A stretch of DNA of 64,000 bases from Naegleria gruberi. Lineage: Eukaryota. The stretch lies in assembly GCA_000004985.1 (NCBI GenBank), contig GG738847.1; one strand, written 5' to 3'. The position numbers and the translations under genes are program-made. Each line of letters begins with the position of its first letter. Position 1 is the stretch's first letter. The notes below the pieces were generated by a model. It did not search any database. It was not told the DNA's origin and saw only the letters and a program-made list of their open reading frames with translations. Below are positions 4,606 to 45,900 of the stretch, piece after piece.

Positions 4606-4996
4606 TAATAGTTCTGATGATCAATCTTCAGAAGAAGAATCTGATAATGAAATCGATGATTTAAAACAACAAGAGGTATTGCATCAATCACAATTACACA
4701 ACACTGACACACACTCTATAACACTACCACCACTATTACCACTATCACCACCATTATCATCATTACAATTTAATAACGATATTAGTAATGATGATAAAAT
4801 ATCCTCCTCATCATCACGTAAACGAAAGAGTACACTATTGGAATAATCACAATTTCACTCAACTAAGTTTTTATAAAAATTTAATTTTTCACATAACAAT
4901 TTTACTTACATTTTAAAGTTTAAACAAGATAGAAATGTATTAAATTCTTTACAAATTAGTATACCAACTGCAATATTAAGAGATTTATATGGTGAT

Positions 4997-7687
4997 TTGG
5001 AAGAATTATTCATGACAAAAAAGAAGAATTCAATTAAGGATAATGATTTTGAATTACAACCTTCTATTTTACTTCCTTTTAATAATAATAATAGTATTAA
5101 TAGTATGAATATGAATAATAATCATTTGAATCATTTGAATAATCATATGAATGATGATAATAGTTTAATTCAAGTTAATAATGAAATAATGAATGATGAT
5201 AGTAGTGTATTATTAGATTATAGTGAAATTGGAAGTGGATCAATAGATGATATAATGATGTTTGCTGATTATCCTATTGTTAATAACACTACTACTACTA
5301 ATGATAACAGTTCTGATTTAACACCAACTAGTATTTCATCACCAAAATCCAATTCAACAATAACTGGAAGTACTGGATCATCATCTTCTAATGAAAAGAA
5401 GAAGAGAAAGAGAAAGGAATCTGAAAATTCTAATCATTTAACCAGTGAATCATCCAATGTAAATAATAATATCACCTCATCATCATCTTCATCATCATCA
5501 TCAATAACAACACCAATAACAAATTCACTATTAGAATCTAAATCTATTATTTTAATTGAACAACAACCTAAGAAGAGAACATCTAAATTAATAGATAAAT
5601 CACCTCTAAAACCATCATCATCTTTAAAATCTAATTTAAATTCTTCAACACAACAAGCATCATCTTCAACAACAATTAGAAGAAAGAATAATAGATCAAC
5701 TAGTCAAGATACAGAAACATTTATATGGACATTAGAGGAGGAACAATTATTATTAAAACTAGTTGAAAGACATATACATTTTAATAATTCTAGTAGTACT
5801 AGTAATAATTCTAATAATAATTTATCATTATATGAATCAACAATTGAAGAAATTAAAGAAGGTGTTAATTGGCAACATGTAACTGACATGTTAAATGAAA
5901 TATTATCACCCATATGTCCAAATAGATCAGCACAATCATGTTCTAATAAGGTTGAATTATTATTAAAAGAAATTCAATCAAGTAATAATTTAACTGATCG
6001 TACCAAAGATAGAACATTTGATGAATTAGTTAGAGAAATTAAAGAATTTAGATTGAAGAGAGTTTACAATTGTATAACTGGTACTTTTATTGGAACACCA
6101 ATAGTTGGTAATAATTCAAATTCAAATTCAAATACTTCTAATAACATATTATCAATGAGTAGTGGTGGAACTATATTATTACCACCACCTTCTTCATCCT
6201 CATCTAATACTACTACTTCTTCCTCTAATACTTCTAATAGTAATGCAATGAAGAGAAGGAGTAAAACACAAAATTCCATAACATCACTTGTATCCTCTCT
6301 ATGTATGATACATAAAAAGAAGAAGAAATCATCATCCTCATCATCATCAACAACATCATCATCGACAACATCATCAACAGGTAACAACAAATCAGATTCA
6401 TTTGTTGTACTATCAGCATCACAATCAAAGAAATTACAACCACCTAAATTATTAATATCCTCTACAATTGTTGAATCTCAATTAATTTTAAATAATATTA
6501 ATGCTACTTCTAATAGTAATGCATCAAAACATACACTTGATTATAAGAATACTGAAAAACAAACACTTACATTAAATTATTATAATGAATTTGAAAAGAA
6601 TACAAATATGGAAAATAATAATAATACTACCAATACCAATACCAATACTACTAATACTAGTAATATAGATTTAAATGATTCAGATAATAATTCAATACCA
6701 TCATCACCTATAACACCAACTCTAAAAACAATGAGTCAACAATTTGATTTTATGAATGATGATGAATTTGGATTAAATATAATTGGAATGAAAAAATCAA
6801 ATTCTTATTCTTTCAATTTTAATCAACAACAACAAACAAATAATAATAATAGTGGTGGTAGTGGTAGTAGTGGTGTTGGAACAATTGGACCAACTAGTCC
6901 ACAACATCAACGTAAACGTGGTACTATTACATCATCTAATAAGCAATCAAGTAATGTTATTAATAATACAAGTAATATGGCAACAACTAGTTCTGTAATA
7001 ACACCAATGACACCATTAAATACATTATCAAGTAATAATAATAATACTATAACCAGTAATAATAGTATGATGGGTTTATTAACACAACCTTCATTTATTA
7101 ATAGTAATAATACTAATATTAATAATAATACTAATAATAATAATTCAACAAGTAATGTTAATGTAGTGAATTCAGCAACATCTGCTGCAACTCAACCAGC
7201 AACAGGTGCATTCTTACAAAATAGAAATCATTTATTATCTACTCAAGCAAATAATATGGTTGTTGGAGTTAATGTTAGTGGAATTGGATCAGCAGCAACA
7301 TCAACAGTTGGTAATATTGTTAATCCTGCATTACTAACACCTGGTACTACTTATGGTGGCCAACATATTCAAAATGTTGGAACCTATTATGCAACTCAAG
7401 CATATACACGTGGATCAATTGTACCAACTATTAATCCAATGGTTAATACTTATTTACAAGCTCAATATAATGCTTCTTTATATAGAGCTAATGTTGGAAC
7501 ACAACAACCAATATATTTCAATCCTAATATTGTAAATAATATTGTAAATACCAATAATACAAATGTACACACCATCAATAATCCAACCAATGCAGCAACT
7601 CAACCTGCAACTAGTCGACAATCAACAAGTAATTCTTTTGCTCCAAGTTTTTTCATGAATCAAAATAATCAAAACAAGAAACAATAA
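4997..7687 (+). CDS. Low-complexity S/N/T-rich protein with a Myb/SANT-like domain (FIWTLEEEQLLLKLVERH...VNWQHVTDML). The first ATG is at about 5012.
   Basis: 896-aa ORF. The W...W...W spacing resembles a SANT/Myb fold. It could instead be the 3' part of the upstream Snf2 gene (see findings). Confidence 0.5.
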   Translation: MEELFMTKKKNSIKDNDFELQPSILLPFNNNNSINSMNMNNNHLNHLNNHMNDDNSLIQVNNEIMNDDSSVLLDYSEIGSGSIDDIMMFADYPIVNNTTTTNDNSSDLTPTSISSPKSNSTITGSTGSSSSNEKKKRKRKESENSNHLTSESSNVNNNITSSSSSSSSSITTPITNSLLESKSIILIEQQPKKRTSKLIDKSPLKPSSSLKSNLNSSTQQASSSTTIRRKNNRSTSQDTETFIWTLEEEQLLLKLVERHIHFNNSSSTSNNSNNNLSLYESTIEEIKEGVNWQHVTDMLNEILSPICPNRSAQSCSNKVELLLKEIQSSNNLTDRTKDRTFDELVREIKEFRLKRVYNCITGTFIGTPIVGNNSNSNSNTSNNILSMSSGGTILLPPPSSSSSNTTTSSSNTSNSNAMKRRSKTQNSITSLVSSLCMIHKKKKKSSSSSSSTTSSSTTSSTGNNKSDSFVVLSASQSKKLQPPKLLISSTIVESQLILNNINATSNSNASKHTLDYKNTEKQTLTLNYYNEFEKNTNMENNNNTTNTNTNTTNTSNIDLNDSDNNSIPSSPITPTLKTMSQQFDFMNDDEFGLNIIGMKKSNSYSFNFNQQQQTNNNNSGGSGSSGVGTIGPTSPQHQRKRGTITSSNKQSSNVINNTSNMATTSSVITPMTPLNTLSSNNNNTITSNNSMMGLLTQPSFINSNNTNINNNTNNNNSTSNVNVVNSATSAATQPATGAFLQNRNHLLSTQANNMVVGVNVSGIGSAATSTVGNIVNPALLTPGTTYGGQHIQNVGTYYATQAYTRGSIVPTINPMVNTYLQAQYNASLYRANVGTQQPIYFNPNIVNNIVNTNNTNVHTINNPTNAATQPATSRQSTSNSFAPSFFMNQNNQNKKQ

Positions 7688-7789
7688 ATTGATTGTCATC
7701 TTTTCTTTAAATAAACTTTGAGCATATGAATAGATTCGTAGTTAAATGGAGAATAAAAAGCATTACCAAATCTTTTCTTTAAATAATCT

Positions 7790-9155
7790 TTATTGTTTAG
7801 TAGTAGCATTTTCAAATCTTTGAACAAGTCTTTGATTTTGACCACTGTGTGGCTTCTTTTCAAGTCTCTTATCCAGCAATGACTTGGCAATTGGATGATT
7901 TTCCTTGTTTGGTGAATTGAAAATGGCATGAAGGAATAAAAGTTCAAATACATCTCTTTGAGCATTAGATCCACCAATTAAATGAGTCTTTCCAGGGAGA
8001 ATGACATCTTTGAGTAATTGAATAGTTTCATCAAATTTAGAATCATTAAAAGCATTAATTGCCTTACAAATTGGAATACCAACTTGTTGATGAACAAGAG
8101 CACAAGTATGATTAACATCATTAGATTTGGAATTTGTATAATTTTCCAATGATTGAATATGTGAATTAATAATTTCTTCATGAATTAATCTATTATTAAA
8201 TACCATTGTAATATGAGCATCATTAAAAGATAAAGCATGACTATGAATAATATTTTTCCATTGATTTCTAACCTTTTCCCATCTATTATCATTCTTTTCA
8301 ATCATACCTTCTAAATATAATCTAAATAATAAAGCAGAAGCATCAACTAAATCTAATGGAGTAATTGACTCGATGAAAATTGAAATCTTTTCATCATAAA
8401 TTTTTAAAATTTCATCCTTTTTTCCTTGATCCATTAAATATAAACAGAAATGCCACCACATATGACATGCTAATGCTTGACAATTAGCCCAATTATTTTC
8501 TTCTAATTTCATAAATTCAATTCCTTTTTGAATTTCACCTCTCATTTCATTAATATGAACAATTGCATGTAATGCCCATGCATCATCTTGATTAATTTCA
8601 ATAGCTTTAATTGCTGCTTTCATACCTTCATCATATCTATGTACTTCTTCTAATCCAAATGCTTTTTATATTAAATAAAATTAAAAATTAAATTAAAAAT
8701 ATTTAATAATATTTAATAAAATAAAAAATAAAAAATAACCCACCTAACATTCCCATAAAATAACCATATAATTCCATAGGTACATGATCATCTTGTTCAT
8801 AAATATTTAAATGTTTTTCAACACTTGAACAAATATTATTAGATTGACCAAGATAGAAATAAGCATCATGTGCAAATTTAAGTGCAATTACATCTAATGA
8901 ATCAATTTTTAATAATTCTTCCCATATTTCAGTAGCATTAATATATCTACCTTCTCTCCATGATTCTAATGCTTTAATATGAAGAATTTCAATTTCATTT
9001 TCACTTTTTAATTCTTTTAAAAATTTTAATTTTTTTAAATAATTTTCATTATCTAAAAATAGATCAGTTCTTAATAATTCACTTCCTAATTCAATCACTC
9101 TTGCCATTACATTTAATGGTTCTTCTTTTAATGTTTTTTCAAGTGTTTCTGTCAT
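7790..9155 (-). CDS. ttc38: Tetratricopeptide repeat protein 38 (TTC38) homolog. Exons lie at about 8744-9155 and 7790-8661, with an 82-nt intron (GTGGGT...AAAAAG).
   Basis: ORFs 8703..9155 and 7790..8623 join through an AT-rich intron. The conserved TTC38 signature is ALACHMWWHFCLY...DASALLFRL. Confidence 0.75.
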
Positions 9156-9225
9156 TGAATTCTTCCATCCAATGTACTTTTATGATCATGATGATTATAT
9201 GTATACTTAATTGTATTGTTATTAC

Positions 9226-9505
9226 NNNNNNNNNNNNNNNNNNNNNNNNNNNNNNNNNNNNNNNNNNNNNNNNNNNNNNNNNNNNNNNNNNNNNNNNNNN
9301 NNNNNNNNNNNNNNNNNNNNNNNNNNNNNNNNNNNNNNNNNNNNNNNNNNNNNNNNNNNNNNNNNNNNNNNNNNNNNNNNNNNNNNNNNNNNNNNNNNNN
9401 NNNNNNNNNNNNNNNNNNNNNNNNNNNNNNNNNNNNNNNNNNNNNNNNNNNNNNNNNNNNNNNNNNNNNNNNNNNNNNNNNNNNNNNNNNNNNNNNNNNN
9501 NNNNN
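9226..9505. other. Assembly gap, a run of 280 N.
   Basis: Literal n characters in the sequence. Confidence 1.
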
Positions 9506-9660
9506 TCCAACATACACACTCCTCAAAGATAAAATATCTTAATCACTCCCAATTTTAATCAATGATTATTATCCACACTGTACTACTACTACTACTTGAA
9601 GAGATTACCATTAAATTAAATAATATTAATATATTCAATTATAAAATTCAATTAAAAAAA

Positions 9661-10378
9661 ATGTTGTCCAAATTTAAAAACTGTTTAAACATTTCTTCTT
9701 CTTCAAGAAACAAATTCATTCAATCATCACTATGTAAATTAAATAATACCACCAATAATATTACCAATAATAATAATATTTATCGTTCATTTACCATTAC
9801 TAATTCAACATTCTCTTCTTCTTCCGATAATAATTCATCATCATCATCATTTACATCACAACAACAATTAGAACAATTAAATAATAACAATTCATCTCCA
9901 TCATCCAATAATAATAATTCTAATAATTCTTCTAATAATAATAATTCTTCTTCTAATCATACATTTTCATTAGAAGATTTAGATAAAGTAAAAGAAGAAT
10001 TAATTAAAAATTTATTAGAAATTGATTCTAATTCATCAGTTCCATTACCATCACCTGGTAAATCATCTGGTGATCAATCAATTGATGAAGCAACTAAACA
10101 ATGGAGATTAACAAATACTAAAGATGATGAAAATTTACAAAAATTATTTAAATCAACAAAACAAAAAGCATCAACTTCTTTATTAGAACAATCTCAATTA
10201 AATAGTAATATTAATGATATGGAAAATGATGATTTTGAAGTTGGTGTTGATAAAGATGAATTTTCTAAATATGTTAATCCATTCAATCCTGAAACACAAG
10301 AAGTTAATGGTCCAAAAAGGTGCTGAACCTACTAGATTTGGTGATTGGGAAAGAAGTGGAAGATGTGTTGATTTTTAA
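9661..10378 (+). CDS. sdhaf4: SDHAF4 / DUF1674 (succinate dehydrogenase assembly factor 4) homolog. The N-terminus is poly-N/S-rich. The conserved C-terminal motif GPKGAEPTRFGDWERSGRCVDF is reached only after a 1-nt frameshift near 10315.
   Basis: The C-terminus matches the SDHAF4 consensus EPTRYGDWERKGRCIDF when the A-run at about 10311-10316 is read with one fewer A. The ORF track ends the frame early at ...GPKRC*. Confidence 0.7.
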
Positions 10379-10492
10379 AATATTTTAAAAATTATATTAT
10401 ATTAATAATACCCTTTTTTATTAAAATAATAATATTTATAATTAAAATAAATATTATAAAAATATAATATAATAAATATAATAATAATAAAA

Positions 10493-11908
10493 TTATTCAT
10501 TAACTTTTGAAACAATTCTCTTAAATCTCATAATATTTAATTTTTCAAAAATGAATTTAAATAAAATGGTAACCTTATTAACTCTCTTTTTAAAACCAAT
10601 TCTTGCCATACCTTCACTATACTTGTTAATTCTTTCAAATGATAATTTAGAATCTTGTTCATATAATTGTAATGCTTGATTAGTTAATCCATGTTCATTT
10701 AATTGAATACATAATTGAATTGCATCATGAATAGCAACATTACCACGTTGAAATAATGTTGGATCAACACTGTGTGCTACTCCACCAATTGCAACTATAT
10801 TACCATTGGCACTATTATTATTACCAGTATTATTATTACTGCTAGTATTACTAGTATTATTCTTATTAATATTACTAGTATTATTATTATTAATATTAAA
10901 AGGAATAAATAAATTCTTCAATTCATGATCATATGAAATTTGAGAATGTGCAATGGTATGAATTCTATTTCTAGAATAAACGTATTGTCTAATAATATCA
11001 ATAACACTATCAACACCATTATCTCTTAAATTAGTATGAATCTTATTAACGAAATGAAGTGAATTTGTAGAATTTCTTTCCATTCCTAATGCAGAATGTT
11101 TTGGAATGTATTGAATTGAATGAATTCCTAATTGTTGATTTGATAAAGGTATAATTGCTAATCTACTTGAATTATTCCACCATTCAAATAATCTATTTTC
11201 ATAATCAATATCAGAAGGTGAAGGTAAAATAATTGTATCACATTCATAATTTCTAGATTTTAAAATTAATTCATTTCCTAATTTAGTTTGTAAATATTTA
11301 ACAGATTGTGATTGTGAAATATCATCTTCTGCTGCAACAAGTAAATCAACATGACGTTTTGTAATTGATTTTTTAGTTGAAAGTGAAATTCTATTACCAT
11401 TTTCATTAATATTTCTAATATTATCATTAATTAAATTAATATTTGATAATTTTTGTAATTTATCATTTAATAATTTTAATAAATAACTTTTTTGACATGA
11501 ATATAAACATGGTGGTGTTGTATTTTTTAAATCCATAACTGTTAATGCATTACGTATATCTGCACGTATTAAATGATAATGTGTTAATTTAATTACATTT
11601 TTAGATTGTTTTAAATCAATTTCACAATATTCATTCAATAATTCAATACTTTTATGTGATAATACTAATATTTCATCTTTAATATCTTCACTTGTTGTAT
11701 ATATATCAATTATACTTTGTGGTTCTTTTAATGAATATGCAATTGAAAATACTAATCCTTCAATAGTTTGTCCACTTACACCAATATGTTGTTGTTGTTG
11801 TTTTTTATTATTATTATTATTAGTTGTATTAGTAGTTGTATTAGTATGAGTTGTAGTAGTAGTATTAGTAGTAGAAGTAGATGAAGGCTTTGGTGCATAG
11901 ACTCTCAA
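10493..11908 (-). CDS. Divergent flavoprotein-monooxygenase-like protein (UbiH/COQ6-type fold). It carries a GGVAHSVDPTLFQRGNVAIHDA motif that resembles GDAAHxxxPxxGQGxNxxxxDA, and a degenerate N-terminal dinucleotide-binding motif.
   Basis: Motif resemblance only. An upstream ATG at about 12055-12057 encodes a mitochondrial-presequence-like MKSLRLLRHSAHSML, but it is out of frame (see findings). Confidence 0.35.
   Translation of the reverse strand: MRVYAPKPSSTSTTNTTTTTHTNTTTNTTNNNNNKKQQQQHIGVSGQTIEGLVFSIAYSLKEPQSIIDIYTTSEDIKDEILVLSHKSIELLNEYCEIDLKQSKNVIKLTHYHLIRADIRNALTVMDLKNTTPPCLYSCQKSYLLKLLNDKLQKLSNINLINDNIRNINENGNRISLSTKKSITKRHVDLLVAAEDDISQSQSVKYLQTKLGNELILKSRNYECDTIILPSPSDIDYENRLFEWWNNSSRLAIIPLSNQQLGIHSIQYIPKHSALGMERNSTNSLHFVNKIHTNLRDNGVDSVIDIIRQYVYSRNRIHTIAHSQISYDHELKNLFIPFNINNNNTSNINKNNTSNTSSNNNTGNNNSANGNIVAIGGVAHSVDPTLFQRGNVAIHDAIQLCIQLNEHGLTNQALQLYEQDSKLSFERINKYSEGMARIGFKKRVNKVTILFKFIFEKLNIMRFKRIVSKVNE
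10795..10905 (-). repeat. Coding trinucleotide repeat (AAT/ACT class) that gives a poly-N/T/S tract in the monooxygenase-like gene.
   Basis: Visible tandem tattattatta / tactagtattatt runs. Confidence 0.7.
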
Positions 11909-13598
11909 GGAGGATGAAAAATTAGCCTTGTTGAAGAAATTTGTTGAAGAAGAAGTAAATTATTATGAGTAGAAATAGAAGAAGGATAAAAAGACTTGGT
12001 CATTTCATTGGCCAACATGGAGTGAGCCGAATGACGCAATAAACGCAAACTTTTCATTTTTTTTCAATTTTACCTTTTATTGTGTGAATGAATACTAAAA
12101 TGGCCATTCAATTAGATGAGTTTAAAACACAATTATTGCCTTTATCATATTATTATATTGAAATTACAATGAAAGTTAATTAAATATGTAATTTTTCATG
12201 ATATTATCTTTCATTGTGAGAATGGATCCATAATTATAGATATTCAATACATTTAATACTTCCTATATTAAAATAAATAATAATAATGAAACAATAATAA
12301 TAAATTAAATTTTTAAATAAACATAGGATAGAGTTTGTATTAATAAAAGTTTATTTAATATTTTTAATTTTATATTTAATTGAATAACTTTTAATTAAAC
12401 TTAATTTTTGTTTATTAAAATTAATTACATAAACAATTTTCATAATACAATAAATTAAATACAATATTTTAAATTCAATTAATTTTTTTCCTTTTTCATA
12501 TAAAATTCAACCAAGAATATTTATTATAATGAATATAATTACCCTCTATTAATTTATAATTTAAATTATTTAAATAAATATCATTATTCTTTAAAGTACT
12601 ATTAATAATATTTAGTTTATTATCATTTAAACTACTAATAAGTATTTTTATAGGCATTAATATTTTACATTATTAATGTATTTTAAATAGACTTGTTGAT
12701 TATGATTTTATAAATAATTAGTTTAAATTTAATTATAAATGTTCGATAATATATTTTGTACAATTACAATTAGGTATTATCTGCTAATAATAAATCTATC
12801 CTGGATTCCATTAAGAATATTTAATTTTAATTAACATGTATTAATATTAGCATGTTTCAATTTGCAAAAATTTATGCCATTAAGTTTGCTCAAGAACTGA
12901 ATTCAGTGATCGGAACAGATATTACTAACCTTCTCAACTAAGTTTTATGAAGGAACGAAGCATTGTTGTTATGACAACTTTTACCATGAGCTGATTGTTG
13001 TATATGGTTTATTAACAAAAATACTTAGGCTAAGACGGTTACATTATTGTATTTCTACAACTGCGGTACATAACCAAAACTCAATAAATGTAGATGAACA
13101 CTACCATTGAGTAAATAGCTAGGTACGGTAGTTGCTAATACCATAGAATCATAGAATAATATAGTATACAGTACTATCAGTACTATACATCTCAATATAT
13201 GTCATCGTAACTATTTTCTGTTGAATTACACTTACGTTGATCACGGTTACAATGTATAATTGATTGATCGAACGGTACAAAGAATACAACAATATTTTCA
13301 TTGAGAATAGATTTTAATTCATACCTCATTATCTGAAGCACTTCTACATAGTACATGATGTTAATTAATTGGTGCCGAAGAGGAAACAACACAAGGATCA
13401 CCAACACCTCAAAATGAGAACAAAATTCTCCTGGTAATACTGACAACGGAGAGGAACCAGAAGATGACGAGGCAGGGTTTAGGCCATATATCCTAATCAT
13501 TAAATGAATCTATTGTACAACAAACATTAAATGATTGCGTGTAGACGATTTACCATTAATAGAAGTGCCACTTTATTATTTGAATCTGATTAGTGTAT

Positions 13599-13988
13599 NN
13601 NNNNNNNNNNNNNNNNNNNNNNNNNNNNNNNNNNNNNNNNNNNNNNNNNNNNNNNNNNNNNNNNNNNNNNNNNNNNNNNNNNNNNNNNNNNNNNNNNNNN
13701 NNNNNNNNNNNNNNNNNNNNNNNNNNNNNNNNNNNNNNNNNNNNNNNNNNNNNNNNNNNNNNNNNNNNNNNNNNNNNNNNNNNNNNNNNNNNNNNNNNNN
13801 NNNNNNNNNNNNNNNNNNNNNNNNNNNNNNNNNNNNNNNNNNNNNNNNNNNNNNNNNNNNNNNNNNNNNNNNNNNNNNNNNNNNNNNNNNNNNNNNNNNN
13901 NNNNNNNNNNNNNNNNNNNNNNNNNNNNNNNNNNNNNNNNNNNNNNNNNNNNNNNNNNNNNNNNNNNNNNNNNNNNNNNNNNNNNNNN
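13599..13988. other. Assembly gap, a run of 390 N.
   Basis: Literal n characters in the sequence. Confidence 1.
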
Positions 13989-14024
13989 ATTAATATGAAC
14001 AATTGCATGTAATGCCCATGCATC
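13989..14024 (+). repeat. A 36-bp segment identical to 8549-8584, inside the TTC38 coding exon, sitting directly after the gap.
   Basis: The same string attaatatgaacaattgcatgtaatgcccatgcatc occurs at both places. Confidence 0.85.
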
Positions 14025-14097
14025 TACATACGAAATATTCTGGAAGACAATTTATCATCGATACGTCATTACTAATATTATTGAAAAATATCAAAAG

Positions 14098-15823
14098 ATG
14101 AAAGACTATGGTGCTACTACCAGTGCAACTAACAATATTCCACTGAGTGAAATACTCAATGATTCGAAACATTACAATAGAGAGAAGAAGAAACAAACTT
14201 TGAAACTAATCAGAGGAATTAAATCAAATTCTGGACAGAAAAAACTAATTCCCTTCGTTGTACATAGGGCAGTGATGCAATCACTTTTGAATGCCTATGA
14301 TAAACATATATTGGAGGTATGATAAACATATATTGGAGGATGGTAGTGCTGCTGAGAGAACCTCTTCTATAAAGGAAAAACTATTTTTAAATTTACAACA
14401 AAATGTGGTGGATAAAGGATTCAAGTATTTGATGGAAAAACAAATTAATTCAGAAATGACTATAGCTCAAAATGTTTTCTTTGGAGGTTTGAAGACTACT
14501 TTTCAACATCATTCAAATGAAATTGTACTGAATTTTCTGATACATGTCTTGGGAGAGGAATATATGAGTAATATTAGTGTAAAGAAGAAATTTAATCCAA
14601 ATGTAATTGATTTGAAATTGGTTCTAAAGAAATTATTCAGAGGAATTTCCGAAGAGTTTCATTCTAAATTGTATTGGGATATGATGATAGAATTATCATT
14701 GCAGAAATTACCTGAATTAATTCCAAAGAAAGAATTTTCAAATGTTTTAAAGGGCTTATTCGAATCTAGAAAATTCAAAGCTCCAATATCTTGGATATCA
14801 ATTATGTATGCCAATTGTTATTATTATGAGGATGTAAATGAGCTAATGTATGAACTTTTGAATAGGAATGGAATTGATACTTTTGGACCATTGGCAATAA
14901 GTGAATATTTTACAGAATCCATTTCAAAAACATTTTCTTTATTGGCAGAATATCAGTTTTTCATCAAATATTTACAATTTTTGGGAAAATTCCTAGAAGG
15001 AGAGAAAATTAATGTACAAGTTACTGAAAATAGTTATTTTTATTCGTTAATGGGACGATTATCCAATGAAGAGAGTACTAATTTGAATGATTTTCTTGAT
15101 AATTTACCAATTCCATTATTAGAGATGATTAACTTGAAAAGTATGAACCAATTCCATGTCAATATACATAGAATATTGGAATATGTTAAAGGGAAAGGAA
15201 TTTTATATTCTCAATCAGCCATAGAGAATTATTTGGCAGGATTTTACCTCTATTCAACACAATACGGTCAAATAATTAAATTCTTAATTGACAATTATCA
15301 TACAGCAGATATTTATGAAATAGAAAAGAAGGTGAAATTCTACCCAAAACTTGTACAATATTTATCAAATATCTATAATAATGTGGCTGTATATGTTAAT
15401 GAGTTTGCCACTTTATTTCCATCAGATAAACCAATTGATTTGGACAAGCTTTCTGAATCGTGCAGTAGTAGTAGTAGTAGAAGTAGTATTAGTATTGGAG
15501 ATTTAATTTTAAAAAATTGGAAAAATCCAAAAGAATTTGTACAATTTTGTAAGAAACGTTTCATTCAGAATATTTTCTATTTACCAACAGTTTACCGTAT
15601 TCTGTCACAAGTACTCAAATATTACAATGATAATTTAGAGATTAAGAGAGCTATCTATGAAGCAGCCATGTTTAATGAAAATCTAAAGCTCTCTAATTAC
15701 GTTACCCAATTACTTGAGGAAGAACCTGAATTATTACAAGAAACCACACTTCAATTCAATAATTATCATCAAACAGATCCAAGGTTTGCCATTTCAGTCT
15801 ATCTATTTTGTAATGAGAAATAA
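14098..15823 (+). CDS. Hypothetical ~570-aa protein with codon usage atypical for the surrounding genome (frequent ctg/gag/aag/gtg). The reading frame is split by a 22-bp tandem duplication at 14296-14339.
   Basis: ORF 14098..14322 ends ...AYDKHILEV* and ORF 14291..15823 begins ...RYDKHILEDGS. Removing one 22-bp unit fuses them. No recognisable domain. Confidence 0.4.
14296..14339 (+). repeat. Perfect tandem duplication, 2 x 22 bp (tatgataaacatatattggagg). It is not a multiple of 3, so it shifts the frame.
   Basis: Read directly from the sequence. Confidence 0.9.
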
Positions 15824-16074
15824 TTATTTTTGTAAGCAATCCAGAGTTGGTAAAAAACCCATTTTTGAAACAAACGAGAATTTTCCATTTCTTCATATCT
15901 TTAGAGACCTCTATTGTTTCTTCCTTCTGACTTTTTGGATTAAATTCAATAGTTTTGAATATTGCTCTCCTTGATTTTGTTTGTGGTTTTATATCTAAAT
16001 TTACAATAATAATATCATACATATTTACAATTATTTTTCTGCAATATTTAAAGTGATTTGCTTTTCAGCCAAGT

Positions 16075-17778
16075 TTGCTAGAGTCAGTGGCTTTGACAAC
16101 AATAACCACCACACACAACAATAATAATACTAATACCAATACTAATAATAATATTAACAATAACAATATTAACAATAATACTCATTGTCTTCCCAATGAC
16201 ATGTTAATAATAATATTTCAATTTCTCAATCAACAAGATTTTATTATAATGTCACTTGTTTGTAAATATTGGAGATTTGTTGGTCAACAACCATTCCGAA
16301 AGGAATTTACAAATTACAAATTATACCCCTCTTATTCAATGATTACTCCAACATTTATTACCAATTCATTTGAATTTTTTAATTTCTTTTCTTCCATAAC
16401 ATGCTATTTATTTAATACAGTACCTAAATCAACATTTAAAACTATTTTACTCTCTCAGAAATTACAAAGTTTATTTGTAGATTCTTGTTGTTTGGTTAAA
16501 AATATAATACCATTCCATTCAATGATAAAAAAACATTCCTCCAATAATATCACTGAATTGGGATTAAATTATAAAATGAAAAAGAAAGATTTACGTGCTC
16601 TATTTCAAGTACTTCCAAATTTGAAACATTTAAGTTTAGGAATGGGAGCAACAGAATGTTTAATTAGTACAGAATCATTTCTTAGTACATGTTGTCATAA
16701 ATTAGAATCACTCCATTTACAATTATTACCTGAAAATCATAAAAATATTGTAAAATTATTAAATGGAATATTTAATCCATCACTTTCAACAACAACAACA
16801 ATATCCAATCTCATTGATATTAGAATATTTATAACAGAATCTTATTCAATTAATAGAAAATTAATTTTACATTTGATTTTAATTCATTTCCATATTTAAA
16901 ATATTTATTTCTTGATATTACCTATATTTATACATTAGAATCAATTAGTAATGTATTATTAAATTCAACTAATATTTCAAAATTAATAGAATTTGGATTT
17001 GGAACTGTTAGAAAATCTATTGAAAAATTACATTTTAAAAATAGTGAAAATTTAAAAAATTTAAAAAAATTATTTTTAAATAGAACAGAAATGATGACAA
17101 ATATAGATAATCTTCCTTCATTAGAATTATTATATATAGATGAACATGAAAAAAAACATTGTTCCACTAAAAATTATTCAAAACCATGGAATTTAGCATT
17201 NNNNNNNNNNNNNNNNNNNNNNNNNNNNNNNNNNNNNNNNNNNNNNNNNNATTTTTGTTTTGATCTTACCATAATTTAGATTTATCTGAATTGAGTCAAT
17301 TAAATTTAGAAATATTAATTCTTAGAATTCCTGTCGAAAATTATAGGATATTTCATCACATTTCTAAAATATTAACATTGAGAGAATTAACATTTCATTC
17401 TCATAATATTTATGCAACTGATTTGAAATTACTTTGTAAATTACCAAATTTAGAATATCTTTACATTAGATTGGAACATAAAAGTGAAACATCTTTTACT
17501 TTTAATTCACTAACTACACTTTCAATTTATTCAGATAATTTGAAACAATTAAATTTCTTTCAAATATCAAATTTACCAAAATTGAAAACTTTAATGGTTC
17601 GTAATAATCGGGATAATAACCATAAATGGTGGTTGCAACCATTATTTCCAAATTTACAAATACTTGTTGCCAACAATACAGGAACATTTTTAGCATCTCC
17701 ATATAATGATGGTATGAATTTTGGTGCGTGTGATATTTTGCAAAGAATAACAAATTATGAATATGTAGCCCACTTTCC
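16075..17778 (+). CDS. F-box/LRR protein (LPNDMLIIIFQFLNQQDFIIMSLVCKYWRFV, then LRR-like LxxLxL units). It probably has several exons and spans the 50-N gap. The exon structure is uncertain.
   Basis: ORFs 16075..16899 and 17291..17791 plus an intervening open frame carry LRR periodicity. The first ATG may lie within or upstream of 16075. Confidence 0.45.
17201..17250. other. Assembly gap, a run of 50 N.
   Basis: Literal n characters in the sequence. Confidence 1.
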
Positions 17779-17950
17779 AAAAAAATTTTGATACTATTAG
17801 GATGAAATAAATGTGAATATTTAAAAATTTTAATCATCATTATGATTCAATAATAATTGTAGTGTTAATAGTTAGTAATTAAATATCATTGATATTAAAA
17901 TATTAAATATTTACTTTATATTTTTAATTTAAATATAATTATAATAATAA

Positions 17951-20204
17951 TTATAAATTAAAATCATTATCATTTAAATGACAATGATTTGGAATGGTAA
18001 CATTTAAATTTGAATTGAATTGCATTGCTCTATGAATAGTTTCAAAAGCATTATCATTACCAGACCAACTTCTTCTAGCAATACCATTAGCAACATCCCA
18101 AAATAAAACATTTCTAGCTCTCTCATCTGATTGTTGTGATCCATCTAAAACTAAACCAAATCCACAATTAATTGCCAATCCAAAACCAGTACCACCACCA
18201 TTATGAAGAGCACACCATGTTGCACCCCGCATTGAATTACCTGTAAATGTATGAACTGCCATATCAGATGTAATATTACTACCATCATAAATATTTGATG
18301 TTTCTCTAAATGGTGAATCTGCACCTGATACATCATGATGATCTCTACTTAATGCAATTGACCCACTAATTTTACCTTCTCTAATTGCCTTATTAAATGC
18401 TAAGGCTATTTCAACTCTACCTTCTATATCTGAATATAATATTCTTGCTTGTGATCCAACTACTAACTTATTTTCCATTGCTTGTACTATCCATTTATAA
18501 TTATCTTGATATTGTAAATGTGATTTTTCACCAAGTGATGGATTTTTCATTAATCTTTCAATCACTTGAGCTGCTATTTTATCTGTTTCTTCTAAATCTT
18601 TTTCATTACCAGATAAACATACCCATCTTTTTAAATATTAAATTAAAATTAAATTAATAAAATTAAATTAAAAAATAATTAAAATATAAAATATAAATTT
18701 AAAAAATAAAAAAAATAAAACAAACCTAAAAGGACCAAAACCCAATGAAAATATATCACCCATAATATCTTGTACATAGGAAGGATATTTAAAATTACCA
18801 TCTTGATTACAAATATCAGCACCTGCTCTATTAGCTTCATATAAAAAACAATTACCATAATCCCAAAATTTCATTCCCTTTTCAACTAATTTGTTAATAG
18901 CATTAACTTGTCTTTTTAAACTTTCTGATACTTTTAATTTAAATTCATTTGGATTATCTTTCATTAATTGATTTGATTCTTCAAATGTTAAACCAACTGG
19001 ATAATATCCACCTTGATATGGATTATGAAGTGATGTTTGATCACTTCCTAATTCAACAAGTAATTCATCTTCATTAGCTAATCTTTCCCATAATTCAACT
19101 ATATTTCCTAAATATCCAATTGATGTTACTTGTTTTAATAAACGTGCTTGTTTAATTCTTTCAATACATTTTTCTAAATCATTACCAACACTTTCTAATA
19201 ACCATCCTTGTTCATATCTCTTTTTTAATGCTAATTCATTCACTTCTGCTACTACTGTTATACATCCACTAATCACTCCTGCTTTAGGTTGTGCTCCTGA
19301 CATTCCACCAAGTCCTTTTTTAAATTTAAATTTAATTAAAATTAATTAAAATATTAAATAAAAATATTAATTAAAATATTAATAAAAAAAATAAAAACCT
19401 ACCAGATGTAATAAAAACCTTTCCACTTAAATCATTTAAATTTAAATATTTTCTACCTGCATTTAAAACAACAAGAGTAGTACCATGTACAATACCTTGT
19501 GGACCAATATAACAATAACTACCAGCAGTCATTTGACCATAAATAGTATTACCTAAAGCATATAATCTTTCATAATCATCACGTGATGAATAATTAGGTA
19601 CAACTAATCCATTTGTAATAATACAACGTGGATTTTCAGGACAACTTGGAAATAAACCCATTGGATGACCACTATACATTGTAAGTGTTTGATTTTCATT
19701 CATTTCACTTAAATATTTCATGGTTAATAAAAATTGTGCCCAATTTGAAAAAACACTTCCATTTCCACCATATGTTACTAATTCATGTGGATATTGTGCA
19801 ATTTTAACATCTAAATTATTACAAATCATTAACATGATTGCACAAGCTTGTTCACAATTATTCTTATTTGTATAATCTGATAATGAATAGGCTTTCATTT
19901 CTAAAAAACGTGATGGTCTAAATCTATACATATAAATATGACCAAATGTTTTTAATTCATAGGCAAATTCATTGGCCAATTCTCTATGAAAATGTTGAGG
20001 AAAATAACGAAGTGCATTTTTAATGGCCAATTGTTGATCTTGTTTGGAGGGAAGAATTAGATTTATATTTTTAATAGGTGCATGAGGTACAGTAGAATCT
20101 CTCATTTCACTATAATTGAGTGCAGGTGGTAAAATAGTTTGTGGAATGCCCTGACAAAAATATTTACTAATTAATTCTTTAGTTGTTAATTGTTGTTCCA
20201 TCAT
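17951..20204 (-). CDS. Urocanate hydratase (urocanase). Three exons lie at about 19402-20204, 18726-19314 and 17951-18626, with introns of about 87 and 99 nt.
   Basis: Strong matches to the urocanase signatures YGGNGSVFSNWAQFLL, ITSGLGGMSGAQ (across intron 1), SLGFGPFRWVC (across intron 2) and WCALHNGGGTGFG. The introns start with GTAGGT and GTTTGT. Confidence 0.9.
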
Positions 20205-25038: not shown

Positions 25039-25539
25039 TCATTCAAATTCTTTAAAATTCCTTTTCAAATTCTCAATTACCTTCTCTCTCTTGTATGACA
25101 TGTCAACTTTACTCCATGATAATAAAATCGCTTCATATCCACCTGATTCCAATTGTTCCTTCTCATTCAAAATGTAAAGTTGATCTGCTCTCGAGAATTC
25201 TTTCACACCATTCTCAAAAGTACCATAATTAAATTCCTTAACATTTTTAAAATAATCATTCTTGGACCATTGAGTGAATGAATTTCCTTGAAGGAATGCA
25301 ATTCTCTGATTCATTCTGAATTTAAATTCACCTCCACCACCACCATGACGACGACGTTGTTCTGATAGGAATGAACTATTGAGAAAGAGTGATTCTTGAG
25401 AGGAGAGAAGAGATGATGATTTGGAAATGATTGAACTGCCAAGACTTTCCACAAATTTATTACATTCTACGACACTACCACGAAGGCCTACCATAACACA
25501 GATTAAATAGTTGGTATAGAGAAGGTTGGGATTTTGCAT
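25039..25539 (-). CDS. Hypothetical 166-aa protein with no confident homology.
   Basis: ORF only. Confidence 0.3.
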   Translation of the reverse strand: MQNPNLLYTNYLICVMVGLRGSVVECNKFVESLGSSIISKSSSLLSSQESLFLNSSFLSEQRRRHGGGGGEFKFRMNQRIAFLQGNSFTQWSKNDYFKNVKEFNYGTFENGVKEFSRADQLYILNEKEQLESGGYEAILLSWSKVDMSYKREKVIENLKRNFKEFE

Positions 25540-25980
25540 TTTTTTTTAAATTTAGTTGGAATTCAGTCAATTTGAATTTGGAATTGAAATGGAATGTGGA
25601 GAACCAAGTTGTAATGAATTATTGAATATATTTGGATAGTGTGTTGTAAGCATCATCAACTTTCATTTATTAAAAAAATGCAATTTACTTCATCATTGCT
25701 TCTTGTCATAATATTATTATGTTGTTAACACTTTATATTATCAATTAATGGACAATCTCCTCATGTCAATCAGAATCAACAACATTACACTGATACAATT
25801 TATGTGTGGATTTAATTCCAACTCATGGTATGTTTATTAAAAGTATATTCAATAATTATTTAATAATATATTTACAATTTAATATTATTTAAAGGATGAA
25901 GGATGTGAGAGTGTTTTGAAATAATAAGAGATGTAATTCTAATATTGCAATATTTATAAATCAATGTCTTTCCTTTGGTA

Positions 25981-26419
25981 ATCAGGATGAGAGTATATTA
26001 ATATCCAATATCTATCCCAAACCGCTTTTTTTGGATATGGCTTTTTAAAAAGGGCAATCTGGTTGAATTTTTACGGGCTTGGCTTTTTGGATAAATCTCA
26101 TCGGATTGGATAATATTATTTGAAAATGTGTCGTGTTTGAGTAATTGTCATTTGTCAACAAGGAATGCAGTCAAATCACTTTACGAATATTAATTAGATT
26201 ATTATCAATACTAATTGCAATAAATCAACATTTTTCGATATAAATTTGGAATATTGTATTTTTTCAAAAGTTTATTTTTTAGTGGAAATTTCTTGACTTA
26301 TTTTTGGCTTTAGTTTTTGGCTTTTTGGTTCAATTTAGCTTTTTGCCGATTTTTTATTCACCAACATCCAAAAAGTGGTTTAGGATGGATACTGGATATT
26401 AATATACTCTCATCAGGAT
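25981..26419. mobile_element. MITE-like non-autonomous DNA element of ~440 bp with ~55-60 bp imperfect terminal inverted repeats (atcaggatgagagtatattaatatccaatatctatcccaaaccgctttttttggat ... atccaaaaagtggtttaggatggatactggatattaatatactctcatcaggat). Its interior is non-coding and carries repeated ggctttttgg motifs.
   Basis: Reverse-complement comparison of the two ends read from the sequence. Possible flanking TSD-like tggta/tggtg. Confidence 0.55.
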
Positions 26420-26604
26420 TGGTGTAGTGGTATAATATTTGGCAATAATCAACATTCATTTTGATTTATTAAGTCCAACAAGTGGTGGTGTATGGATTGG
26501 AATATTTTACGTACATTGTATAATACTTTTGAAATTCAATTAACTACCCAAATTGATTTCTAATATTTCACAAACATAATAGGTTTATACAAGTTCAACA
26601 AAAT

Positions 26605-27999
26605 ATGACAAGCTACTCTGGTACCGATGGTCATAACAAATTTTATTCGTATGACGAAAACTTTATGCCACACCAAAACTATGGAGCATTATTATTCAAT
26701 ACTCTAGAGTTGGGTGTTGAAGTGTTAGTAAAAAGAGTATCTATGAACACAATGAAACACCTTTCGGAGAATGAGATGTCAAAGAAGGATGAACAATTAG
26801 AGAAGTCCTTAGAACTTGCTTTCATTGATGCAAATATCAACAACATACAACCACTAATATCAAATCTACAAGCTCTAGTGAACAATGAGAGTGGTGAGAA
26901 GATATTAGAACTTAATTTGCCCTCCATAACCTCAACATTGAACACAACAAACGATTCTAATTTGAAAAGAATATGTCGTCAGGTATTGGCGTTTTGTTAT
27001 TGTTCTCTTGGTAAATCTGAGGAATTAATTGATACGTGCAACAAGTTGCTTTTGGAAGATTTTACCACTTCCAATTTAATAATAACTAGCCTTTTATTTT
27101 TTGATCTTGGAAATAAGATTAATTCAATTCAATTGCTCAAAGATTCATTCATAATCATTTCGGACGTTAATTTAATATTTCCAAGTGAAGCAGAAAGATT
27201 GATGGTGGCTATTGGTGACCGATTGTTATTAATGATTACTTCTGATTATGAAGATGAATGTGAAGAAACTTTGTTTGCTCAATATGTAGCCAGAAGATTG
27301 TCTACATGTAATACTGCAAGCCCTGTTGTTTATGGTGATGGAACTACTCATGCATTCTTTAATAGAGCTCATAGGCTTTCAAGTATCAGTGAAACAATGT
27401 TATCAAATTTCGATCCTCTAGAACGTGAAGAACGTTATGTTGTGCTTTGCAATGCTATTCACAATTTTAACAGTGTTTTGCAATTGGTTTTAAAAAAACA
27501 ACAAAAAGTTGAGTTTCAAATAAGCTATCCTATTACAACTACCAAATCAGATGTATTTAGTATTAATGCATACAACAATACCTTATCAAGCTTATTTTTA
27601 GAATACTTGCATCCTGATATTCCAATAGCAAAAGCAATTAAGAATTACCATACTCAATTTGCCTCATTATTGACATTGGTGTTTGAAAAAAACGTTAAAA
27701 TAATTCAAGCTGAATTGGAGAAGGAAAAACAAAGTTTAGATTTAAACATCAACAACTCAAAAAGGCTTGAAAAAATTGAACAAATGTTAAATCTTACCAA
27801 ATCACAGAAAGAAAAAGAATATCTTTGTTTGTTTAAGGAAATATGTAACAAACACAACTACCCTCATATTTCTGACGTTCAACGTTATTCCATGTTTCAT
27901 TTAAGCTTAGATGGACCTTTTGTTCCAACAATAGAAGATCCTTATGAACAGTACGATCAATCCGATGATGAAATGGAAAATCTAGAACATGTTCAATAA
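26605..27999 (+). CDS. Hypothetical 464-aa protein. It lacks low-complexity tracts and its codon usage is less AT-biased than neighbouring genes.
   Basis: ORF with ATG at 26605. No recognisable domain. Confidence 0.4.
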   Translation: MTSYSGTDGHNKFYSYDENFMPHQNYGALLFNTLELGVEVLVKRVSMNTMKHLSENEMSKKDEQLEKSLELAFIDANINNIQPLISNLQALVNNESGEKILELNLPSITSTLNTTNDSNLKRICRQVLAFCYCSLGKSEELIDTCNKLLLEDFTTSNLIITSLLFFDLGNKINSIQLLKDSFIIISDVNLIFPSEAERLMVAIGDRLLLMITSDYEDECEETLFAQYVARRLSTCNTASPVVYGDGTTHAFFNRAHRLSSISETMLSNFDPLEREERYVVLCNAIHNFNSVLQLVLKKQQKVEFQISYPITTTKSDVFSINAYNNTLSSLFLEYLHPDIPIAKAIKNYHTQFASLLTLVFEKNVKIIQAELEKEKQSLDLNINNSKRLEKIEQMLNLTKSQKEKEYLCLFKEICNKHNYPHISDVQRYSMFHLSLDGPFVPTIEDPYEQYDQSDDEMENLEHVQ

Positions 28000-28095: not shown

Positions 28096-29627
28096 ATGGT
28101 TGTTTGTAGATATTGGTTGCAAGGTTGTTGTCGATATGGCAATTCTTGTTGGTATGATCATTTCAAAACAACAGAACATTCATCATCCCATCAAGTTAAC
28201 TTGGAACTAATTAAATCATGGGAAAAGGAATTAAAAGAGCAAGAATCAAGTTTAGAGAGCATATTACTTGATGCAGACGAACACTATTATGAAAATAGTG
28301 AATATGAGGATTGGGATGATGATGATGCTCAAAAAATTAGAAATGCATTATTACATGGAAAGGAATTGTATATTTATGAAGATGACGATTCCGATTATTA
28401 TGAGGATGAGGATGATGAAGATGAAGAAGAGGATTCCGATGATGAAGATGATGATATTTGGAAAAGAAAGGTCGTATAAATTCTGACGATGAGGAAGATG
28501 AGGAAGATTCCGATGAAGATGAAGATGAAGAAAAAGATTTGAATTATTATGCAAACAAAGTTCGTCAACGCCATAGAAAGAAGAGAAAATTGAATGATTC
28601 TAAACGTTCAACACAATCTATCAATACTAATGTATTAATTATTCAACATTCTAATTATCATTTTACAAAATGGTTAAATACTATTATATTACATAATATT
28701 TTCATGTATTTACCAAATAGTGATCAATTATCATTTAGACTTGTTCATTCAGCTTTTACCAATGAACTCTACATTGGATATAATAGTCATTTACAATATC
28801 AATGCAAATATCAATTTCAACTATTTCTCCTCTTTAAAAATTTAATTAAAAATTATTTAAGTGAAAAATCTACAAAACCATCCACCATGCAATTTATTAA
28901 TGGATGTATACTTCATTTAAATGCACAAATATTAAATAATGAATTGATATCAAATAATCATTCCACTCTGATGAATCTTTATATTGATGATGAAGATGAA
29001 AATTTAAAAACATTGAAAAATTATAAACAATTATTTAAGGATGAAAATGTTAAATTTACAAGTTGGGCATCTGTAAAATTAGGTCATTCACAAGGAAGTG
29101 TTTGTGAATTATCTATAAAAAGAAAAGATGGAAATGGATATGTGAAATTATTTCAACATCATGTCAAGACTATATATAGTAGAGATGATACATGTCATGT
29201 TTATTATTATTTGACGACAAATAGCACTGAAAAAGGAATGGAAACATTGATATTAACTGATACTTATGAATCAGATAAAGTATTTCATAATAAGGAAGCA
29301 TTGAATAATGTATTTTCCTTATTGGATATTCCTTCAAATTGGAATTTGAATGATTTTGTTACATTTCTAATGATTTGTTCATGCTCATTCTATATTAATA
29401 TTAATGAATTTAATGGAAAGAAATATGCAATAGTTGATATTTTACAATTTTTACAATTACAAGATGTTAATTTTAATTTATTATCATCCAAAAATAATTC
29501 TGCGAATGATGTGAGTTCTATTCGTAAAAATTGTCATTCACATTATGAATTAGATGGAATTAAAAAGATGGAACAACTTGTGAATACAATTTCATCAACC
29601 ATCACAATCAAATCATTTCAATTCTAG
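28096..29627 (+). CDS. CCCH zinc-finger protein (CRYWLQGCCRYGNSCWYDH) with acidic D/E tracts and an F-box-like segment (ILHNIFMYLPNSDQLSFRLVHSAF). It reads as two overlapping frames joined by a +1 shift near 28455-28476.
   Basis: ORFs 28096..28479 and 28458..29627. Both carry DE-rich tracts, which argues for one gene. Confidence 0.5.
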
Positions 29628-31994: not shown

Positions 31995-32067
31995 GCTGGC
32001 GTAGCTCAGTCGGTAGAGCGTTGGTCTAATAAGCCATTGGTCGCCGGTTCGATCCCGTCCGTCAGCA
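31995..32067 (+). tRNA. tRNA-Ile, anticodon AAU (anticodon loop CTAATAA), 73 nt, no intron.
   Basis: Cloverleaf: acceptor GCTGGCG/CGTCAGC with one G-U pair, D-arm GCTC-AGTCGGTA-GAGC, T-arm GCCGG-TTCGATC-CCGTC, 5-nt variable loop. Confidence 0.8.
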
Positions 32068-42949: not shown

Positions 42950-45900
42950 ATGCTCAAACAACCAACAACAAAACCATTGGCTATTGTTGGGGTCAATAAT
43001 AATCAACAACAGAGAAGAGTTACACAGAGTAATTTACCTCAACGACAAGCTGTCTCTTCATCATCACGACCATCGACATCATCCCGAACACCACAACCAC
43101 CAACAAATTCAACTAGGAAAACCACATCAAACAATAATCATCAGACAAACAATAATAGACTTCGACAACAATCAGCACACAACGTTCATACAACATCTAA
43201 AAATTCTAAAATACCTGATAATAGAAGTTCTTCTAATGAACCTCTTATTAGATATCACAATTTGGATGATGAGGAACCGGAAACTTTGGATGAAGAGGAA
43301 GAAGATATTCAAACAGTATCTGTGATCCCTTCTTTTGGAAGAAATATATTTCATCAACAACGAGTTAATATCAATGGCGATTCAGTAATGAAAATTAGAT
43401 CACCAATAATACAAACCCCTGTAAATATTCCATCAACAGAACAAAAAGTAGTAATCAAACCACCAACAAAGTTGACTGATTCAATAAGTGCCCTCACTAA
43501 ACAATATAGAAAACTGGGCGATTTCCCATTTCAACCAACAATACAACCTGAAAAACAAGAAAGCTTTTCGGATGAGTGGTCAAGGAAAAAACAAGCTGCA
43601 TTAGAAAGGAGAAAAAACAAATCGAGGAATGAATATCTTGCAAGAAAAGTAGTTGATCATTGGAAATGGTTTGCAAGAAAAGGATTGGATGAAATTAAGG
43701 CCAAAAATAAGAGGAATATCGTTTTAATATTCAAAACATTTCAACATTGGAAAAGAAGAAAAGAGGAAAGAGATAATTTATGGAAAAAAGAATTTATTGT
43801 ACAAACAAGACAAAAGTTCACTTTGATGCAAACCTATTTCAATCAATGGTTGACTCAATTGGAAATATCGAGAGAAAGAGAAGAACTCTACACAGATAGA
43901 GCTTACAGTTTTTTGAAACGAAAATTGGAACACAAAGTGTTGAAATCTCTTAAATTATTTGTTCTGCAAAGAAAAGAAAGAAGAGAAATTATTGATATAG
44001 CTGATACTTTTGCAAATAGAAGAATCATTAAGGGCTCACTAAGAAAAATTAAGGAAGGTTAGTATATTTCAATTACAATAATAAGGACTAACATATGATA
44101 GTTAAAATAATGCAGGATAAGGACACAGCAGCTGATCATTTCTGGCAACATCAACTATTCATTAAAACAATAAGAAGTATTAAAATGTATATAGGAGAAG
44201 AAAATTACAACAAGGAATGTTTGGCACTGGAGTTTTTCAATAATAATCTGAAATCAAAATCACTGAAATCACTTGCCCTGTACTATAGAGCCAAAGAGCT
44301 CAAAAGAAAAACAATTGAACAGAATAATATGAAAGCTGATAATTTCTTCAAAGATCGTCACATTCAAGAATACTTTAAAGCTTTGCAAGATTTTTGGCAA
44401 AGTAGAAAACAAAAACAAATCAGAGAGCAAACCTCATTTACTTATTACAGAAATACTAATGTCAAGAATTTCTTTGGATATTGGAAAATGTGCAGTTCAA
44501 ATTCAATCCATTTCAAGGAGTTGGAGGTATGTTGATTATTAAGGAAATTGATTCAAATAACTTATTGCTTAGTCAATCATCCAAAAGAAGGAAAGAAAGG
44601 CTCTTTTAAAAGAGTTTTTTTCTCAATGGAAAGAAAAATTAAATGGGAAAAATCTCATGCTCAATATGGAATATGAAGCTAAACGATTTTATGACCACAG
44701 TATCAAATGCAGAGCCTTTATAAGTTTGAAAACTGTAAGTTGAACACCATGATATTTCTAATATCGATTAGTATAATAATTTTAGGCAAGAAAAAGAAGA
44801 ATCAAAAAACAAATCAATTAGTTTTAATTCGTTTTCAGTTGTGTATAAGGCATTCAGACATTGGAAGGTAAGTTGTTTGAAGAAGTTATTACTGATGAAA
44901 TAATTAGACAAAATTTGAATTAGAGAGAGATAAAACATCAGAAAAGAATAGGATTGTTGATAATTTGATTAGAACCAAAAACAAGCAACTTATACTGAAA
45001 GTAATAGCCAATCTAAAGTCTCATAAAAATAAGAAAAAGGCCAAACAAAATGAAGAAGATAAGAGAGTTATGGAACTACGAAAGATATTACAAAGAAAAA
45101 AGATGGAAAGAATTCTTAAATCATGGAAAGATTATCAAAATTACAGAACACAAAGAAGAGTTGATTATGAAAGAGCAGTTATGCACTATCAAAGAATTCA
45201 AAGAGAGAAATCAATGAAACAACTCTACGCATACATGTTATACAAGAGAAGGAAATATTGCCTCTATGAAAAAGCTGAAAAATTCACAATGAATCACTCA
45301 ATCAAGAACATATTTCAGTATTGGTTTGGAATAGTGGATGACAGATTGAATACTAAATGTAAAATCAAGAAGGCTGAGTTTACTTTCTCTAAACATTTAG
45401 CCAAGAAAACCCTTCGTTCCTTTAAGAATTATGTTTATTACAAAAGAGCCAAATCCAAGTTAGAAATTGAAGCTATGGAAAATAGAAAAGCACTCCTAAT
45501 GAGAAGAGGCATGATACAGTTAATGGAAAGTTCCTTTGAGGAAAAAACAAAACGAATGAACATGATTGAAAGGTTAAATCTTAAAAGTACTGCTGAAGAT
45601 CTGAAGAAAATTGAAAAATTTGCTAGGCATTGGCTTTATATTACAATAAGAAATGCTCACAAGAGAGGATCTGGTCTTTTTAGTGGATACAGAAGTTTGA
45701 CCATTCAAAACACCAAAGAAGAGGAACCATCCTCAAACAAATTTGATAGAGAACCTACAAGTCAACTAAAATATCCAAAAAGAAGAGCTTCTCCAAGAAG
45801 ACCATCAGATGTTGATCGTCTAAAGTTTAATGATTCAAATTCTGTTACAATGGCCCCACCATCAAGAGTCAAGTTTGAAAGTTTTCCTTCTCCTAGTGAG

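Follow-up and report, generated by a model that had tools for sequence, protein, structure and literature searches.

We analysed a stretch of 64,000 nucleotides of genomic DNA from Naegleria gruberi, which is referred to here as the window. Within it, an intergenic region of 1,065 bp separates two divergent genes and holds a short element with inverted ends that is flanked directly by a repeated octamer. The features of the locus, with the octamer pair read as a target-site duplication (TSD) and the inverted ends as terminal inverted repeats (TIRs), are as follows.

25039-25539, minus strand: gene NAEGRDRAFT_62329, 166 aa, no Pfam family, exact match to XP_002682483.1, transcribed away from the element
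25981-25988, no strand: left TSD, ATCAGGAT, identical to 26412-26419 and abutting the perfect TIR end
25989-26411, no strand: element proper, with GAGAG...CTCTC ends and flanking TSDs, GC 0.286
25989-26057, plus strand: left TIR, ungapped core 25989-26030 with a gapped extension to about 26057
26024-26090, plus strand: left subterminal GCTTTTT(GG) cluster, starts at 26024, 26040 and 26082, exact GGCTTTTTGG at 26081-26090
26319-26346, plus strand: right subterminal GCTTTTT(GG) cluster, exact GGCTTTTTGG at 26319-26328 and AGCTTTTTGC at 26337-26346
26343-26411, minus strand: right TIR, ungapped core 26370-26411 with a gapped extension from about 26343
26412-26419, no strand: right TSD, ATCAGGAT, identical to 25981-25988
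26605-27999, plus strand: gene NAEGRDRAFT_45720, 464 aa, no Pfam family, exact match to XP_002682284.1

Genomic setting

The element lies upstream of NAEGRDRAFT_45720, with 185 bp between the right TSD and the start codon of this gene. In addition, a transcript-like contig from ENA, L013, begins at window position 26546, 127 nt beyond the right TSD, which places the element just upstream of the transcribed region of this gene. L013 and a second contig, L014, belong to a metagenome-labelled set (ENA ERZ929261, run ERR1078381, PRJEB11402), whose contigs are the size of genes and derive from an organism closely related to N. gruberi. The L014 protein is identical to a 339-aa gene product of the window, and L013 shows scattered substitutions and small indels against the DNA of the window. 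The ends of both contigs fall within about 40-100 nt of coding regions, which suggests that they are transcripts rather than genomic DNA.

The host is N. gruberi NEG-M (Heterolobosea). Seven ORFs of the window match its proteins exactly, and those seven proteins are encoded on a scaffold of 941,567 bp. The original prediction, made from the letters of the window, had framed the element by comparison with the Dictyostelid families Tdd, DDT and thug, a framing that does not hold for this host; the correction also bears on every other finding made in the window. The ORFs nearby are ordinary cellular ones according to Pfam, including a CEP104-like TOG/LRR protein, a BAR-GYF protein, a CCCH zinc finger, TPX2, Tdp1, SMC, MutS and a mitochondrial carrier. 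No transposase or other transposon was found in the surroundings among the neighbouring ORFs scanned with Pfam.

The gene at 26605-27999 had also been described as atypical in codon usage for its region, and the numbers do not bear this out. GC3 in this gene comes to 0.273, where the window averages 0.188 (sd 0.076), and the codon-usage distance to 0.99, where the average is 0.90 (sd 0.22); several other genes of the window are more extreme. A link between the element and horizontal transfer or odd codon usage of its neighbour was dropped on these two measures. The GC content of the window follows a gradient, from 0.19-0.29 at positions 1-20000, a part rich in Asn/Ser/Thr-type codon repeats (AAT, AGT and ACT runs), to 0.29-0.38 at positions 38000-64000. 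This gradient, and not the gene itself, is probably behind the impression of atypical codon usage.

Some other features of the window are recorded here. Runs of N at 9226-9505, 13599-13988 and 17201-17250 mark assembly gaps, and any listed ORF that spans one of these runs (9101-9558 and 13535-14023, for example) is an artefact of it. A plus-strand ORF of 370 aa at 42950-44062 carries the NCBI name 'retrotransposon gag/pol polyprotein', but Pfam gives it no match at E<=0.001. Two of the ORFs that follow it, 46354-47724 and 47765-48349, match MutS domains, and the retrotransposon label looks doubtful. The sole RNA gene detected in the window by ARAGORN and Rfam is a tRNA-Ile(AAT) at 31995-32067 on the plus strand (59.9 bits).

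Boundaries, inverted ends and internal repeats

An inverted-repeat search places two arms of 51 nt at 25980-26030 and 26370-26420, 88% complementary and 339 nt apart, and a gapped comparison with blastn stretches them to about 70 nt (a 72-nt alignment at 80.6%). In a base-by-base reading, the element proper is 423 bp long. Its left end opens with GAGAGTATATTAATATCC, and its right end is the reverse complement of this sequence. The first 19 nt inside the TSD, GAGAGTATATTAATATCCA, are identical at both ends when read as a TIR. Without gaps, the TIR core matches at 38 of 42 positions between 25989-26030 and 26370-26411, and the mismatches in this core are transitions in 4/4 cases. Beyond the core there is a 2-nt gap, after which the match resumes and continues to about 69 nt, so that the full arms span 25989-26057 and 26343-26411.

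This inverted repeat is far above the level of chance. The best local inverted repeat of the 1.5-kb neighbourhood scores 33, while 60 shuffles gave 11 on average and never more than 15. A 27-mer of the element end occurs at only two sites in the 64-kb window, where shuffles expect 0.00. The single-stranded DNA of the element takes the form of a long hairpin (z-score -5.8). Another hairpin-like inverted repeat of the window, at 50428-50527 just upstream of the long ORF 50663-55135, has 22-nt arms that are 91% complementary with 56 nt between them, no TSD, and a sequence unrelated to that of the element.

The outermost 8 nt of the two arms are not inverted copies of each other: the octamer ATCAGGAT stands in the same orientation at 25981-25988 and at 26412-26419, a perfect direct repeat (8/8). 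At a fixed spacing, the empirical background for an 8/8 direct repeat in the 64-kb window is 1.2e-4. The duplication is exactly 8 bp long, as the ninth bases differ. ATCAGGAT is almost its own reverse complement (ATCCTGAT), and because it is nearly palindromic the outer 8-9 nt mimicked a further piece of inverted repeat with two mismatches. Both of these 'mismatches' in the outer 9 nt would be transversions. Set against the transitions of the core, they fit an outer part that is a TSD rather than a decayed TIR, and we read the ATCAGGAT pair as a target-site duplication.

These boundaries revise those of the original prediction, which had given the element as 25981-26419 with TIRs of about 55-60 bp. 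The inverted repeat that it described is real and the TIRs are present, but the span took in the TSD, and the TIRs, counted from GAGAG, are about 42 nt long without gaps or about 69 nt with gaps. The prediction had named target-site duplications among the things to be checked and had itself missed the 8-bp ATCAGGAT on both sides.

The interior had been described as non-coding with internal ggctttttgg repeats, and both statements are confirmed. No ORF inside the element exceeds 38 aa, the length of the longest. GCTTTTT occurs 17 times in the 64 kb on both strands together, and five of these occurrences are inside the 423-bp element, where about 0.11 would be expected; all five are on the plus strand, with the two on the right starting at 26320 and 26338. 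The longer form GGCTTTTTGG has exactly two occurrences in the whole window, which lie on one strand and both within the element. Positions 26079-26096 and 26317-26334 form an 18-nt direct repeat, TTGGCTTTTTGG(A/T)T(A/C)AAT, with 89% identity. Class II elements usually carry their transposase-binding sites in this way, as short repeats clustered just inside the TIRs. The GCTTTTT(GG) repeats are probably transposase-binding sites here as well, judging from this arrangement.

A probable single transposon insertion and its alternatives

Taken together, the locus probably holds one inserted copy of a class II (cut-and-paste) transposon of N. gruberi, miniature and non-autonomous, which is to say a MITE. 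The core reading of the original prediction, a small non-autonomous DNA transposon with TIRs and subterminal repeats, is supported, and the 8-bp TSD strengthens it. For a MITE one looks for flanking TSDs, for TIRs and for a length below about 800 bp without coding capacity; the element has ATCAGGAT at 8/8 on its two sides, TIRs that match at 38/42 ungapped and extend to about 69 nt gapped, and a length of 423 bp. In addition, its position in a divergent intergenic region near a gene start counts for this reading, since such positions are typical of MITEs.

According to this model, a DDE-type transposase encoded elsewhere in the genome would bind the TIRs (GAGAGTATATTAATATCC...) and probably also the subterminal GCTTTTT(GG). 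It would excise the element and insert it where the target had been cut with a stagger of 8 nt; filling in the stagger would then leave ATCAGGAT duplicated on both sides. Because it is without coding capacity, the element would depend on transposase supplied in trans. We infer this mobility in trans, the role of the subterminal motif and the superfamily discussed below. The insertion implies a clean empty site, which would read TTTGGTAATCAGGATTGGTG; before insertion the site would have been ...CTTTCCTTTGGTAATCAGGATTGGTGTAGTGG... with a single ATCAGGAT.

What speaks against a transposon is the number of copies, repetition being the defining property of a transposon family, and the outcome of the searches for relatives. 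The element is present once in the 64-kb window, and neither the 27-mer with up to 3 mismatches nor blastn at word size 7 finds a further copy there. A scan for TIRs with adjoining TSDs finds nothing related either, although its low-complexity filter also removed the element itself. The collections searched were viral, metagenome and prokaryote DNA together with proteins, and N. gruberi genomic DNA is not among them. An exact 18-mer of the TIR core matches once in IMG/VR, 11 times in the JGI metagenomes and 7 times in the GTDB genomes. None of the IMG/VR and JGI matches extends past the 18-mer and none is paired, the GTDB matches are each single and in a bacterial contig, and we treated all of them as chance. 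For the inner TIR, a degenerate 25-mer has 0 matches in IMG/VR, and a six-frame pseudo-protein of the element finds nothing at E<=10 among 5.8 billion proteins. In the open-access literature we found no account of this element, of any Naegleria MITE or of a Naegleria hAT. On the side of a transposon, DNA transposons have been reported from N. gruberi, whose repeats are for the most part unclassified (PMC3164196, PMC9587614, PMC12344493). The repeat content of the genome is about 5% (PMC6125883), and a small fraction only of these repeats is classified (PMC12344493).

The single copy in 64 kb and the missing relatives in the collections searched also count for a static origin of the locus by local inverted duplication or palindromic rearrangement, the 8-mer match then being coincidental or left over from repair. 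We regard this as improbable. A perfect 8-bp direct repeat would have to fall exactly at the outer edges of the arms (about 1e-4), the short subterminal repeats are clustered at both ends, and the interior between the arms is unlike nearby sequence, which offers no possible source for it.

Alternatively, the element may be a transposon with other boundaries. If the TIR began 9 nt to the outside of GAGAG (AATCAGGAT...ATCCTGATT, including two mismatches), the TSD would be the 3-bp GGT, and the element would be PIF/Harbinger-, CACTA- or Zator-like. The inverted-repeat search does run out to 25980 and 26420, GGT is present on both sides (TTTGGT/AATC...GATT/GGTGTA), and Harbinger elements are known in N. 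gruberi (PMC3164196). However, these boundaries require that TIR positions 2-9 are self-complementary and that two adjacent transversions happened to produce an 8/8 direct repeat, whereas the undisputed mismatches of the TIR are transitions only (4/4). In addition, GGT is unlike the TWA of Harbinger, and the ends are not CACTA. By our rough estimate the likelihood would favour the 8-bp reading about 20:1, and we consider the 3-bp TSD improbable.

Hairpins of MITEs are sources of small RNAs in other eukaryotes. This precedent and the long hairpin fold could also recommend a structured ncRNA gene or a long-hairpin small-RNA precursor, instead of or besides a transposon, but of the explanations weighed here we give this one the least credence: the fold is an automatic consequence of the TIRs, Rfam finds nothing, even at E<=1, the one transcript-like contig of the locus begins outside the element, and of the four TIR mismatches two would form wobble pairs and two would not pair, whichever strand is folded, so that the arms show no strand-specific compensation. 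The right flank has a tRNA-like look (GGTGTAGTGGTATAAT), but ARAGORN and Rfam detect neither a tRNA nor another ncRNA there.

Superfamily and significance

For the MITE insertion, the length of the TSD narrows the choice of superfamily. A TSD of 8 bp points to hAT, Mutator-like, P, Merlin or similar elements, and it excludes Tc1/mariner (TA), piggyBac/Kolobok (TTAA), PIF/Harbinger (TWA) and CACTA. The Dictyostelid families Tdd-4/5, DDT and thug share with the locus an AT-rich protist genome and a small element with TIRs. They differ in host, as the element is in Discoba, and little would be expected from comparing their sequences with it. DDT elements are Tc1/mariner-like with a TA TSD. No TA TSD is found at the boundaries of the element, and with N. 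gruberi as host the Tdd, DDT and thug families were rejected. PIF/Harbinger was rejected, as the 3-bp TWA TSD is absent and the flanks are ATCAGGAT, or GGT with the outer boundaries; Harbinger elements are present in N. gruberi (PMC3164196). Likewise, Kolobok and piggyBac were rejected because neither boundary has a TTAA. Kolobok has been reported in Naegleria (PMC9587614) and PiggyBac in N. lovaniensis (PMC6125883). The most plausible superfamilies are hAT and Mutator-like, and we make no choice between the two.

Like the hAT MITEs (Mar, the BuT2-derived MITEs of Drosophila, and Ds1-type elements), the element is small and non-coding with an 8-bp TSD, and it also has short subterminal repeats and a place near a gene in common with them. 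hAT TIRs are usually 10-25 bp long (PMC3942097), whereas those of the element are 42-69 nt. The end of the element, xAGxG, agrees with the hAT end pattern YARNG at 4/5 positions, and its first base is G where hAT elements usually have C or T (Y). In other words, the short TIRs and YARNG termini of hAT elements are not found here, where the TIRs are 42-69 nt long and the termini are GAGAG. This mismatch makes hAT less likely but still possible, because MITEs can differ from their parent elements. Ac-type hAT elements reportedly have the target pattern nTnnnnAn (Arensburger et al. 2011). ATCAGGAT fits it with T at position 2 and A at position 7, a single instance that is weak as evidence.

The ends of maize Mu are GAGA-like, and the terminal GAGA of the element resembles them. 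The TSD of the element falls within the MULE range of 8-11 bp, at its lower edge, the usual MULE value being 9 bp, and its long TIRs may be a further resemblance. The 8-11 bp range is that given for MULEs in PMC6446971, where Spectre has an 8-bp TSD and 74-bp TIRs. MULE TIRs are typically hundreds of bp long and those of the element are shorter; at 42-69 nt they are inside the range of some MULE groups and short for most (PMC6446971). The MuDR-type element of N. gruberi itself, MuDRF, has a 9-bp TSD (PMC3164196), in contrast to the 8 bp found here.

A more speculative proposal, to which we give limited weight, is that the element represents an uncatalogued Naegleria or Heterolobosea family with an 8-bp TSD (hAT- or MULE-type) that may still be mobile and may, through its hairpin or subterminal motifs, influence the divergent promoter region. 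Continued mobility of such a family is possible because the TSD is intact and the 19-nt termini are perfect. If active, it would give this protist, for which good genetics are lacking, a transposon tool of its own. If it exists in multiple copies that differ between strains or haplotypes, it would serve as a useful marker and point the way to an active transposase. The analysis documents one clean class II insertion in N. gruberi with its exact boundaries and TSD, and its direct importance is modest. MITEs are ubiquitous and DNA transposons of N. gruberi are already known, so the element is of an ordinary kind.

Two genes around the insertion, at 25039-25539 and 28096-28479, have second versions in the same assembly that are >90% identical to them. 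These are on tiny scaffolds of 1,261 bp (NAEGRDRAFT_77082) and 1,645 bp (NAEGRDRAFT_77016), and NAEGRDRAFT_77082 is 97% identical to the 166-aa gene upstream of the element. The two scaffolds look like unmerged alternative haplotypes of this region. Allelic scaffolds of this kind could show whether the transposon insertion is heterozygous, or could reveal the empty site.
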